A program made the translations under genes and the position numbers. Shown here one piece after another: positions 34,668-39,879 of a DNA stretch of 60,000 nt. The first letter of the stretch is position 1, and each line of letters begins with the position of its first letter. Source of the stretch: Schmidtea polychroa (lineage: Eukaryota); NCBI GenBank assembly GCA_044892525.1, contig CM097885.1, positions 22,880,001 to 22,940,000 on the forward strand, read 5' to 3'. Under the pieces are notes generated by a model. That model was not told the origin of the DNA, did not search any database, and saw nothing but the letters and a program-made list of their open reading frames with translations.

Positions 34668-35025
34668 ATGTAGTCTACAGTGAGCATGTAGCTACATAGT
34701 AGTCTGCAGTGAGCATGCAGCTACTTTTCTTTTATATAATAATAATAATATATAAATAATAATCAGACCCCGTCTACAGTAGTTTGCAGTAAGCATGCAG
34801 CTACATAGTAGTCTGCAGTGAGCATGCAGCTACTTTTCTTTTATATAATAATAATATAAATAATAATAATATAAATAATAATAATAATATATAAATAATA
34901 ATAATATATAAATAATAATAATATAAATAATAATAATAATATATAAATAATAATCAGACCCTGTCTACAGTAGTTTGCAGTAAGCATGCAGCTACATAGT
35001 AGTCTGCAGTGAGCATGCAGCTACT
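34668..35025 (+). repeat. Three pairs of ~28-nt hairpin units (GTAGTCTGCA-GTGAGCA-TGCAGCTAC)
   Basis: Six copies separated by AAT-rich spacers; two more at 39556-39620. Confidence 0.85.
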
Positions 35026-35280
35026 TTTCTTTTATATAATAATAATAATAATAATAATAATAATAATAATAATAATATATAAATAATAATCAGACCCCGT
35101 CTACTAAAATCTCTCTAATATTCTATCGAATATATTAACCTATTTTCTATAATGATTTATCATCATTTGTTATTTAATTCAAATGAACTATATAACAAAT
35201 GATGATAAATCCTTGTAGAAGTAACAATTAGTTTTCTATATAGAAAAAAACAATAAAATTTTAATTTTATTATTTAACAG

Positions 35281-38200
35281 GTATACTATACCCGAACTAT
35301 TGTCAAACATCAATTGGACATAGTGATAAATGTCATAGAACAATGACAAAATATTACCGAAAAAAGTTTAATTCGGTCAACTTTTTTATATGCCCCAAAT
35401 GTGTAACGAGCGAAAAAATAAAATATAGGGAATTTTTTAATAAACATCATAATCACTTAGGGCAATTTTCGATATCAAAAAATGTTTTATTTAAAAAAAT
35501 AAATAAAAAATTAAATAAAAAAAAAAAATTAGAAAATAATTTACAAAAAAACTTACAAAAAAATTTAGAAAATAATTTACAAAAAAATTTGCAAAAAAAT
35601 ATTAAAAAAAATAAAAAAAATATTATTAAAGATTCAAATATTAAAAAAGATGCTATTAAAAAAGATACTATAAATATTATTAAAAAAGATATTATAAATA
35701 TTAAAAAAGATTCTATTAAAAGACCTGCTGGTTTAATTAAAAATTGCATTCCTAATAAATTATCGCGACCTGAAGTGATAGTCATCAGCAAAGATGAATG
35801 TGTAGCTTCAACATCGTTTACACACCAAGCACCCATTACACAACACGCACCCATTACACAACAAGAAGTGATAGTCATCAATGATGAATGTGTAGCTTCA
35901 ACGTCTTTGAACATATGCCAAATAGGCGGCTCTTTATTTGAACCTATGGTAGAATCCGATTTGAACGGATCGCGTAAAACTTTAAGATTTGATATTAGAA
36001 ATCAAAACTTAGTAAAAATAGCCCTAACATCAAAAATTGAAGATAGATTAATACAGGAAATAGAAAAGATGGGCAATGTAAAAATTCAATTCACAATTTT
36101 AATTAAATTTGAAAAAGATGGGGAGATCCGGGATAATTATTTTTCAAACAATGCTCAAGTTTTTACATCAAACTTTATAAACGAGGGGGTGAGCAAATTA
36201 AATGAAAAGATTGAGCAATTCACCTATTTAGGAAGCGGGTGGCGAGTAATGAATATTTTAGAAATAGATTTTATTTTAACGAAATACGCACCCGTCAGTA
36301 GATTATCCGGACATAGCTATATAAAAACCCCATCAGCATTAAAATTAAAACATGCAATAATTAATGTAAAAAACAACGACCATAAGTGCTTCTTGTATAG
36401 CATTCTTGCACTTTTAAAAAGAGAAGAAATAGGTCGTAATCACCAAAGAGCCGCCAAATATATAGAATTTTTACCTCTATTAAATTATGACGAAGACACT
36501 GATTGCCCGATGAGGCTATGCAACATTCCCAAATTTGAAAGAAAAAATAGAGATTTAAACTTGAGCATAAACGTTCTGTCTTATAATCCAGCCAGTTCTG
36601 ATTTAGATATTTCTGAGGATTATGTAGCTCACCACCCTCATCTTAATATAGTACATCGCTCCAAGGTTATAGACGGTAGACCAATTTATTTATTACTTTT
36701 GAGTAATAAAGATAAATATCATTATACAGCCGTGACAGACTTGGACAAATTAATGAATTGTCATGAAAATGAAAATGTAAATGTTCAAATAAGGTGTAAC
36801 TGGTGCCCACATTGTTTAAATGGCTTTAGATATAAGAATGCTTTCGATCAGCATGTTGCTCTATGCTGTAAAAATCAGACTGGCACAACTTTGTATACAC
36901 TTCCTAAAAATAAAGATTTATTATTCACAGATTACGCGAAAACAGTTACACCTCCCTTCGTAATTTATGCCGATTTTGAATCGGTTTTACCAGAACATGA
37001 AACATATCATCAAATACATTTACCCATATCAGCAGGTCTTTTATTAATTAATAATTATACACACACTAAATTTTATTATTATTTTTTTGGACCTAATTGT
37101 ATTTTGGATTTTTTGAGGAAAGTGGAGGAAATTGCTGTCACAATTGTCCTGCCATATTATGATCTTGAAGGTCGTAAAGGTATGTCTACTTTGTCTTTTG
37201 CTCAGGAGCGTGCCTTTCGATCTTCCACTATTTGTTATTTGTGTAAAAAATCTATTATTAATCCTGTGAGAGATCATTGCCATTTTACAGGTAGATATGT
37301 CGGAGCGGCATGTAGGAAATGCAATGTCTCTCGCAGGATTAATAAATTGTTACCTGTTGTCTTTCATAATTTACGAGGCTATGACCTCCACCATATTTTA
37401 AAACATGGTCTCAGTGATTTTCCCCTTTGGGAACTTAATATTATACCTACCTCTACAGAAAAATTTATATCTTTAATTGCATATATTAACAAATTGCCTG
37501 TTCGTTTTATTGACAGCATGCAATTTGTTAATTGTTCTTTAGCAAAAGCTGTGAAAACCTTAACTACTTTTCCTTTGACTTCGTCTGTCTTTCAAGGGTC
37601 GATGATTCACTCTAAAGGTATCTTTCCATATAATTTCGCCACTTCTTTAGATGTTCTTGAATCGACTTTAGAATTACCTCCTATTTGGTCTGATGTTACG
37701 GAAGATCAGTACGCTGAGGCTCAACTAATTTGGAGTCAGCATAACTGTAATAATTTGTTAGATTATATGTTAATCTACCTAAAATTGGACGTATACCTCC
37801 TCGCAGATTATTTTCAGCAATTCCGCGGTAAGGCAATTGCTTACAATGGTCTGGATCCTCTTAATTTCTACGGGATTCCCGGTATGTCATGGGCCTCAGC
37901 GCTTATGACATTAACGGAACCAATAGAACTTCTGCAGGACATGGAAATGTATAATTTCTATGAGGGAGGTATCCGGGGTGGGTTAACATTTGTTAACAAA
38001 CATTACACGGCTACTTCAGATGATACAGAATTATTGTACATTGATATAAATAATCTGTATGGTTGGGCTCTTAGCCAAAATCTTCCGTATGGTGATTTTT
38101 CTTGGGTGAATAATAACTTGAATGATGTTTTACTTGAATGTATGAACACGGATATTGATAACCTTCCATATGGGTATACTATGGAGGTCGATATCGATAT

Positions 38201-39338
38201 TCCGGAATGTGTGCATGACTTTTTGAATGATTTTCCGCTTGCGCCGGAAAAGTTGTGCCCGCCTAATTCAAAAGTTGAGAAGCTTATGCTTACGCATTGG
38301 CCAAAGAGGAACTATGTTCTTCATTGGAGGCTTCTCAAATTGTATATAGAATTAGGTGCGGTTGTTGTAAATATTCATAGGTGTATAAAGTTTAAACAAG
38401 GACCTATCTTTAAATCCTACATAGACACCAACACCACTTTACGATCTCAGTCTACTAGTGAGATATATAGGGACTTGTTTAAATTGTATAATAACTCTCT
38501 TTACGGTAAATCGGTTGAAAATTTGAAAAAAAGAAGGAATTTGAGGTTGTGTAATTCATCCGAAAATATGATAGTATACTCCTCAAAGCCGACTTTCAGA
38601 AAGTCCATAAGAATCGATAACGATCTGATTGCGGCACATTTGGAAAAAGATGTGATTTGTTTAGACAGACCTAGCTACATTGGTCAAACAGTACTAGATC
38701 TGTCTAAACTGCGGATGTACCAGCTCCAATATATTGATTTGGAGAAGTACAGACGCCAATATAAATGTATCATAAATATTATTGCCGGTGATACCGACAG
38801 TTTCTTTTTGGAAATAAAAAATTTAAAATTAACAACTTTATTACCTCAGATGATCTCTGATAATTTATTGGATACATCAAATTACGATCCAACCCACCCC
38901 TTGTATAGTAGGAACCTTGACTCGGTCATCGGGAAGTTTAAAGATGAGAGCAAGGGATTAGGGTATTCTGAATGGGTTTTCTTACGCCCTAAATGTTATA
39001 GTCTTTTAGGTAGTAAGGAAACGGTAAAAGCAAAAGGGGTTAAATTACCAGGGACATCAATAAATCACGAATCATATCTAAATTGCTTTCATTCAAATCA
39101 GGTGATTTCTGTACCGCAGACTAGAATAGGTACTAGAAATCACCAACTTTTTACTTTTAAAAATTCGAAAATTGCCCTAAGTAATAATGATGATAAGCGC
39201 GCGTGGCTAGGAAAAAACTTAAGTTACGCATTTGGGCACTATTTAGGAGTTGACGAATTAAGCGAATATGATGAGGAATTCGGTCCAGCTCCAAGTCCCA
39301 GTTTTGACGACAGCGAATGGGACGAAGATCAAATTTAA
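35281..39338 (+). CDS. polB: Protein-primed family B DNA polymerase (main exon; first in-exon ATG 35343) with terminal-protein/vOTU-like region and EndoVII-like insertion
   Basis: GSGW, DHKCF...HY, ExoI YADFES, CxxC..DHCHFTG.Y.GAAC..CN, ExoII FHNLRGYD, motif A YIDINNLYGWA, motif B KLYNNSLYGK, motif C GDTDS, KCY, KAKGV, DDKR. Confidence 0.97.
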
Positions 39339-39879
39339 ATAGAAAAAACTTTATATTTTTGATTCATAAAAACTTGTATAGTGATTTCATGATTTATAAA
39401 AAATTGTATAGAAACTTTTATTTAAAAACTTGTACAAAAACCTGTATATTGTATAAAACTTGTATTTATATATACATATTCAATAAAATTTTTAATCAGA
39501 TTTTTTAAGTATTTGGTGTTTTATTATAATTTTTTTATATTTAATGGTGATTTTTATATAGTCTGCAGTGAGCATGCAGCTATATGTTTTATATAGTCTG
39601 CAGTGGGCATGCAGCTATATCAATGAAATAATAATAATAATAATATTAATAATATTAATATTAATAATAATAATAATAATAATAATAATAATAATAATAA
39701 TAATAATAATAATAATAATAATAATAATAATAATAATAATATTAATAATATTAATAATAATAATAATAATAATAATAATAATAATAATAATAATAATAAA
39801 ACTTTAAACAGGTTGCAAAGGGTACTAGTCATGCTTATTATTGTTATACATTTGATGGTTACATTTTGAAAGCTCTATT

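Follow-up and report, generated by a model that had tools for sequence, protein, structure and literature searches.

What are the short hairpins that bracket the polymerase gene of a planarian Polinton for, and are they read as RNA or as DNA? We addressed this question in a 60,000-nt stretch of the Schmidtea polychroa genome (GCA_044892525.1, contig CM097885.1, positions 22,880,001 to 22,940,000 of the forward strand; hereafter the window, numbered from its first letter), which holds a Polinton/Maverick element with a protein-primed DNA polymerase B gene (polB). Eight 26-nt units, all on the plus strand, lie on either side of the large polB exon, six upstream and two downstream (Table 1). In each, a 7-nt loop caps a 5-bp inner stem, which is separated from an outer stem of 4-5 bp by a single bulged base in the 5' arm. 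Single units fold in this way according to folding prediction, and their pattern found no match in 100 shuffles of the window. These observations bear out the preliminary description of the locus, which had reported eight same-strand units, with their arms, loops, and variants, in two clusters adjoining (AAT)n tracts. Its statement that units always come in pairs stands for the window only, as clusters in sister copies hold 1-20 units upstream and 1-12 downstream, and the loop it gave as GTRRGCA had to be relaxed to NNNRGCA on account of recurrent GTC, TCG, and TTG starts. The bulge is a U in 368 of 385 units. Upstream, the six units go back to a single pair, present three times through local tandem duplication with periods of 109 and 191, so that the window alone yields few independent changes and cannot show selection.

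A genome-wide pattern search returned 4,851 strict matches and 7,260 looser ones, the latter against 21 for a reversed control. We then called 128 clusters in 110 fetched 10-kb stretches plus the element of the window. As 85 of the stretches were picked by a loop-dependent pattern, 40 of these for mismatches, this set under-represents lineages with other loops and over-represents mismatches. Directly before the large polB exon lie 73 of the 128 clusters, and 40 directly after the polB end, both on the polB strand, while the remaining 15 belong to truncated or rearranged copies with Polinton-type flanks on inspection. Unit orientation was always that of polB wherever the strand could be told. 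With 113 of 128 clusters adjoining polB, the motif is not the common host repeat unrelated to the element that would have undone the first description. A stem-loop plus short repeat of the kind found in LINE or SINE 3' tails was likewise discarded, since all 128 clusters occur in a Polinton context or, where inspected, with Polinton-type flanks. Viral contigs gave no match to the unit pattern and metagenome contigs a single one, in an unrelated context and about as expected by chance; the unit is also missing from the single related viral contig (polB 30%), and Rfam has no match for it. The family is thus known here from one genome only. Two peculiar arrangements were observed among its copies. 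At one locus (L072:2133-2187), a unit pair preceded by ATTAAA lies 31 nt 3' of the protease gene, and in the introns of L037, L038, L045, and L060 shortened loop-less units form an array behind the full ones and retain TGCATG within a perfect palindrome.

To assess pairing across lineages, we compared 33 unit types, each present in two or more loci, with 500 shuffles; relatedness among copies inflates the resulting figures. Paired cells amounted to 94.8%, against 87.0 +/- 0.9% upon shuffling, double-change cells to 31 against 10.2, and the covariation score to 0.291 against 0.143, none of which was reached in any of the 500 shuffles. Double changes affect four base pairs, namely the two outermost and inner pairs 1 and 3, and in one lineage the outer stem was rebuilt and the bulge lost. 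Pairing is also preserved by the variants of the window that had been noted at the outset: A-U for G-C in the first unit, outer A-U in the downstream pair, and a sense-strand U·G in pair 2.

The strand on which the structure matters was inferred from mirror mutations, which are equally likely and were compared genome-wide. At inner pair 1, U·G accounts for 36 of the first 100 of 1,232 matches and C·A for 16 of 27 matches in all. At inner pair 3, G·U accounts for 95 of the first 100 of 210 matches and A·C for 47 of 57; scattered G·U is here about as frequent as A·C, and the excess comes from one amplified lineage. Inner pair 4, two outer pairs, and one rebuilt outer stem likewise show amplified sense-strand G·U. 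Sense-strand G·U states are therefore those amplified in lineages, whereas mirror-strand mismatches are sporadic. The exception is the loop-closing pair, at which a change of the 3'-side U to C creates a sense A·C mismatch that breaks the pair, yet has 648 matches. No unit with an inverted loop was found, and (AAT)n lies 3' of 89 of 104 clusters, as opposed to none for (ATT)n. Folding energy favors the sense strand in 26 of the 33 types, mostly by <1 kcal/mol, and is given little weight for that reason. Together, Polinton specificity, covariation across lineages, and a wobble pattern favoring the sense strand support the earlier suggestion of a selected structure belonging to the element. Sequence comparison thus identifies the units as a real, selected cis-element of a Polinton family, which probably acts as an RNA hairpin of the polB transcript when all RNA-based explanations are taken jointly.

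The position of the clusters relative to polB points in the same direction. Wherever its start was called, the large polB exon begins at a phase-1 acceptor, and the small acidic exons that lie upstream of it terminate in a phase-1 donor. This donor is preceded by T, so that predicted splicing would complete a Cys codon in the first zinc-binding motif of the polymerase. The upstream cluster is therefore predicted to reside in the last polB intron, which spans ~0.6-2.3 kb in lineages with units (a few longer donor calls, clearly wrong, were ignored) and ~200 nt in one unit-free, capsid-less lineage whose polB is 57-58% identical. Downstream clusters mostly begin 56-124 nt after AATAAA or ATTAAA; a hexamer occurs within 350 nt in 31 of 36 loci, in three of these only farther away than that usual spacing. 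The downstream cluster, in the window as in the other copies, likely lies just past the polB cleavage site. A hexamer right before each unit is a feature of only 4 of 46 recurrent contexts, in which AATAAA or ATTAAA precedes intronic units by 1 nt. Of the three roles first offered for the structure, RNA processing is the best supported on account of these two locations, packaging or a dyad DNA site being less so. Four contig sets guessed to be RNA and one further run, examined on two sister copies, revealed no spliced joint over any predicted polB intron. Unspliced exon-intron borders are covered by contigs of run X1, one of which extends over the polB stop, the 3' flank, and the downstream unit; the upstream cluster had no coverage in one of two comparisons and low coverage in the other. 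Loose ends with T-runs were also seen in run X4. Because these contigs may contain DNA, none of this was used for or against any explanation.

We next considered which feature of the units might be recognized. Loop positions 1-4 vary, with alternatives fixed in lineages. By contrast, a loop-blind scan of 382 units recovered GCAUG in 351 and GCACG in 21, that is, one of the two in 372, with other pentamers in 10. Among the 648 matches with a non-U fourth motif base, the first 100 are all GCACG and come from at least three lineages, and the A that pairs with this base changed in only 10; even the shortened units without a loop retain GCATG. The pentamer at the loop-stem junction reads as the Rbfox/FOX-1 site motif: GCAUG and GCACG are selectively conserved on the transcribed strand, and several such sites occur in the predicted intron and the 3' region. 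Reading it so also resolves GCACG, the single exception to the sense-strand pattern. We therefore propose, tentatively and somewhat short of an even chance, that a host protein of the Rbfox (FOX-1) family reads the hairpins and thereby gates splicing or 3'-end processing of polB.

According to this proposal, the hairpins would fold in nascent polB RNA and display GCAUG or GCACG at the loop-stem junction to host Rbfox. Splicing of the last intron would join the acidic leader to the polymerase and complete the first zinc-binding motif, while intron retention or early 3'-end formation would yield only a short acidic protein. Rbfox would bind the loop and open the top two base pairs, the stem serving as a threshold device, while dose sensitivity would depend on how many units (1-20) are present. 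Bound arrays might then alter whether a transcript becomes spliced polB or the short form, with the downstream array acting on 3'-end formation or termination. The closest precedent is the FOX-1 response element in intron VI of Caenorhabditis elegans xol-1, which contains several GCAUG and GCACG sites (PMC7787662). As in xol-1, clustered GCAUG and GCACG are the only fixed forms, they sit in an intron (a predicted one in polB) that, if retained, leaves no functional protein, and site number varies, which would tune a dose response. By this analogy, we favor a model in which productive splicing is repressed in cells with high Rbfox. Differently from xol-1, the Polinton motif is embedded in a covarying bulged hairpin, in tandem with (AAU)n, within a mobile element that carries another array beyond the 3' end. 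The terminal loops of pre-miR-20b and pre-miR-107 bound by Rbfox (PMC4872098) share the location of GCAUG at the loop-stem junction and the need for apical pairs to open; the Polinton unit, on the other hand, is 26 nt long, arrayed in pre-mRNA, and devoid of a microRNA-length stem.

Several observations weigh against Rbfox as the reader, or against RNA function altogether. In all eight units, folding predictions place the final two motif bases in pairs (unpaired probability 0.03 or less) and only GCA in the loop, so that binding would need opening of the stem; furthermore, neighboring units can cross-pair in folding predictions, which hides most of the motif. RNA structure lowers Rbfox2 binding, as reported in PMC4872098, which also describes Rbfox binding to GCAUG in the pre-miR-20b loop with breakage of four apical pairs. 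The GCACG change corresponds to a G·U pair on the minus strand, which leaves the strand tally at six positions against one (sign test p = 0.06), and the underlying counts represent related copies, not independent events. In number, neither the covarying pairs (4) nor the pair types (10) went beyond the shuffles (447/500 and 69/500). Template switching can create double changes in one step (PMC8794818) and is visible here, both in the flipped loop of a neighboring long hairpin (3 of 26 copies) and in the lineage without the bulge; covariation alone is thus no proof of RNA function. Four GCATG cluster in a non-hairpin promoter region (28561-28652), which makes a DNA-binding factor possible. The units are also dispensable in some copies, being absent from all 11 capsid-less elements of one lineage and from L132, a capsid-bearing copy of a different lineage, and several lineages lack the downstream cluster. 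Finally, the array of the most distant lineage (58%) resembles that of the window and may have been captured by recombination.

Another RNA-based explanation, which we regard as unlikely, is that the sense-strand hairpin is read by another factor, such as the zinc-binding region of PolB, a host nuclease, or a 3'-end factor, and acts as a terminator or attenuator. It would act after the polB poly(A) site and in the intron, ending most transcripts as the short acidic form. The structure and strand evidence serves this version as well as the Rbfox proposal, and it is further favored by the spacing of downstream clusters from a poly(A) hexamer, by the hexamer 1 nt before each intronic unit in some lineages, and by the copy with an array just after the protease gene. 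Hairpin-directed polyadenylation in Mimiviridae provides a distant precedent (PMC4402537). However, the other genes of the element in the window have no units, most contexts lack an adjacent hexamer, and a terminator leaves unexplained why GCACG is the only pentamer change that was amplified.

A site acting at the DNA level, that is, a dyad or half-site array for a transcription factor (p53-family-like) or for a replication or packaging protein, in duplex or displaced single-stranded form, is in our judgment distinctly unlikely. GCATG palindromes do occur upstream of the leader promoter in several lineages; in the window, the region 28561-28652 has four GCATG and a near-palindrome resembling two p53-family half-sites, kept in several lineages. 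Both strands fold equally well as DNA (-7.1 kcal/mol each), and a wobble on the minus strand accounts for the GCACG change. In the 58% lineage, chosen by polB search, units accompany capsid genes, as all 7 capsid-bearing elements have them and none of the 11 capsid-less ones does; these represent two sublineages, effectively n=2, and the corresponding Fisher value, being pseudo-replicated, was not used. Against a DNA site speak the amplification of sense G·U as opposed to sporadic mirror states at five to six pairs, the fixed 7-nt loop and bulge, and sequence that, beyond CATG, fits a p53 half-site poorly, together with the recurrence of CACG. Moreover, capsid-less head-to-head copies of another lineage (L111, L112, L114, and L120) keep one unit.

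It is quite improbable that the units have no regulatory function and are simply a repeat whose symmetry is maintained by template switching as strand-displacement replication proceeds, and which is amplified by slippage next to (AAT)n. They would at the same time be shared homology for crossovers between lineages, with module exchange as a by-product. Hybrid arrays at L075, L084, and L090 indeed join two lineages inside a unit or AAT tract, capsid proteins are 92-97% identical between lineages as compared with 70-74% for polB, the neighboring long hairpin has a flipped loop, and unit-free copies exist. Nevertheless, the bulge, the loop length, and GCAYG persist across lineages with unalignable flanks, two separate positions are held in one orientation with no inverted loop, and crossovers also fall inside the polB coding sequence. 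None of the 128 clusters joins an upstream to a downstream flank. The module exchange initially proposed thus survives only as lineage crossovers inside upstream arrays, at those three loci, and excision of the polB exon is not supported. A site-specific recombination site of the lox, dif, or attC type was rejected on the same lack of hybrids and because no such recombinase was found among the 15 open reading frames (ORFs) of the element that were scanned. Least credible of all is a splice-site decoy or 6-nt microexon, with the TAG before the bulge as acceptor and the loop GTRAG as donor or U1 site: the commonest units do read TAG, 6 nt, GTRAG, but lineage-fixed loops starting with TC, TT, or AT have no donor and GTAT variants no acceptor, and the absence of an invariant loop-start GU or of AG before the bulge largely refutes it.

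Two further systems with protein-read or 3'-end hairpins were compared. The iron-responsive element has a lower stem, a single 5' C bulge, a 5-bp upper stem, and a CAGUGH hexaloop, is read by protein, and occurs in several copies. The Polinton unit shares the lower stem, the single 5' bulge, the 5-bp upper stem, several copies, and, if our proposal is right, a protein-read loop; it was nonetheless rejected as an iron-responsive element, since its bulge is U instead of C, its loop is the 7-nt NNNRGCA instead of CAGUGH, and Rfam reports no match. Mimivirus and Polintons are related within Bamfordvirae. In Mimiviridae, polyadenylation is directed by palindromes according to a "hairpin rule" (PMC4402537), and the likeness lies in hairpins near a gene 3' end in a double-stranded DNA element (PMC4402537). 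Here, however, only polB is flanked, sequence and bulge are fixed, the main cluster is intronic, and no poly(A) machinery was found among the element ORFs scanned. Hairpins of the Mimivirus type, ending most genes, were discarded: the window has only eight units, all at polB, and 1 of 128 clusters lies directly after another gene.

Table 1. Features of the Polinton and its polB region in the window
Feature	Position	Strand	Basis
Polinton/Maverick element	18199..41438	.	Long terminal inverted repeats and 6-bp target duplication; integrase, A32-type ATPase, adenain-type protease, protein-primed PolB
Predicted small acidic polB leader exons, the last ending at a phase-1 donor	28822..29496	+	Sequence; matching donors in sister lineages; putative splicing
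Predicted last polB intron, holding the upstream cluster	29497..35280	+	Conserved splice sites
Nested insertion in the intron of the window copy, absent from sister copies	30049..34499	.	
Degenerate ninth unit, 3-nt loop, no GCAYG, just 5' of the AAT tract	34520..34545	+	Sequence, folding
(AAT)n tract 5' of the upstream cluster	34553..34669	+	
Hairpin pair 1 (34670-34695, with A-U replacing G-C; 34699-34724)	34670..34724	+	
Hairpin pair 2 (34779-34804, with sense-strand U·G pair; 34808-34833)	34779..34833	+	
Hairpin pair 3, tandem copy of pair 2 (34970-34995; 34999-35024)	34970..35024	+	
Long AU-rich hairpin elsewhere in this intron (-34.9 kcal/mol; z -11.5)	35146..35220	+	
Large polB exon, acceptor 35280/35281, phase 1	35281..39338	+	
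Predicted poly(A) signal of polB (AATAAA), 70 nt ahead of the downstream cluster	39482..39487	+	
Downstream hairpin pair (39558-39583; 39593-39618), outer G-C replaced by A-U	39558..39618	+	
(AAT)n tract 3' of the downstream cluster	39627..39797	+	

The carrier was assigned to Polintons on its long terminal inverted repeats, its 6-bp target site duplication (18193-18198 and 41439-41444), and its gene set. Pfam scanning of the ORFs matched rve, Pox_A32, and Peptidase_C5, corresponding to integrase, A32 ATPase, and adenain protease. The polymerase domain itself was not recognized by Pfam, PDB, or NCBIfam scans, and its assignment as protein-primed PolB comes from its nearest look-alikes (0.97), which carry PF03175 (DNA_pol_B_2). 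A 407-amino-acid ORF (26690-27913) is a putative capsid gene by size and position, with no Pfam or NCBIfam match. Each of two polB queries retrieved 131 scored copies at 98-100% identity, which marks the family as young and numerous in the host genome. Animal Polintons/Mavericks described as adintoviruses (PMC8502044) likewise have terminal inverted repeats, a 6-bp target site duplication, integrase, ATPase, protease, PolB, and a small acidic gene upstream of PolB; the words "hairpin" and "splic" are absent from the main text of that paper, the part to which this comparison refers.

Other features of the element and its surroundings were recorded alongside. The terminal inverted repeats (18199-19901 and 39885-41438, ~1.6-1.7 kb) contain many TGACTCA repeats, an AAT tract, and the duplicated 3' part of a 166-amino-acid gene; some sister copies carry other sequence 3' of the downstream array, by eye a RING-type gene. 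Within the element are also a TBP-like gene (22451-22888, minus strand; Pfam 1.6e-15), a two-exon Bcl-2-like gene identified by eye (20081-20500, plus strand), and an integrase gene with an apparent intron made of (TAT)n (24618-24710). An intronless MFS transporter ORF found in the Pfam scan (11334-12866, plus strand) lies outside the element, on the host side. Features of the 4.45-kb nested insertion are an A-run on its left edge, tandem repeats of 27/35 bp, and a 575-amino-acid minus-strand ORF with no Pfam match; letters near 33700-33745 on its minus strand resemble a hammerhead core, with no match in Rfam. In 3 of 26 copies, each from the lineage of the window, the long, near-perfect intron hairpin carries its imperfect loop in reverse-complement orientation, and Rfam assigns this hairpin only weak microRNA-family scores, far below thresholds. 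Other lineages have different long inverted repeats in the same polB intron.

What would such a signal mean for the Polinton and its host? The hairpin may, by analogy, be a variation on already known intronic control of the Rbfox type. A broader idea, which we consider doubtful, is that tandem Rbfox sites, gated by their structure, let the Polinton sense the identity of its host cell, with polymerase mRNA being completed only below (or above) an Rbfox threshold. A motive for such a cell-type gate is provided by planarian biology: PMC4978528 names a gene Smed-rbfox-1 and reports stem-cell-biased intron retention, and PMC8532177 reports desilencing of planarian Polintons during differentiation. 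If true, the gate could separate stem or germ cells from neurons and muscle, and array length would be an evolvable rheostat on replication, reset whenever slippage or crossovers act on the (AAT)n-hairpin cassette. Our literature search on hairpins and splicing in Polintons and adintoviruses found no cis-acting RNA element, although the supplements of PMC8502044 may map related elements. Should the units turn out to be a DNA site or a terminator, they would still be an undescribed, selected Polinton signal. A small, countable, and naturally varied element in the polB intron makes it testable how integrated Polintons settle in which cells they replicate, and its thousands of natural variants would map the tolerance of a structured Rbfox-type site.

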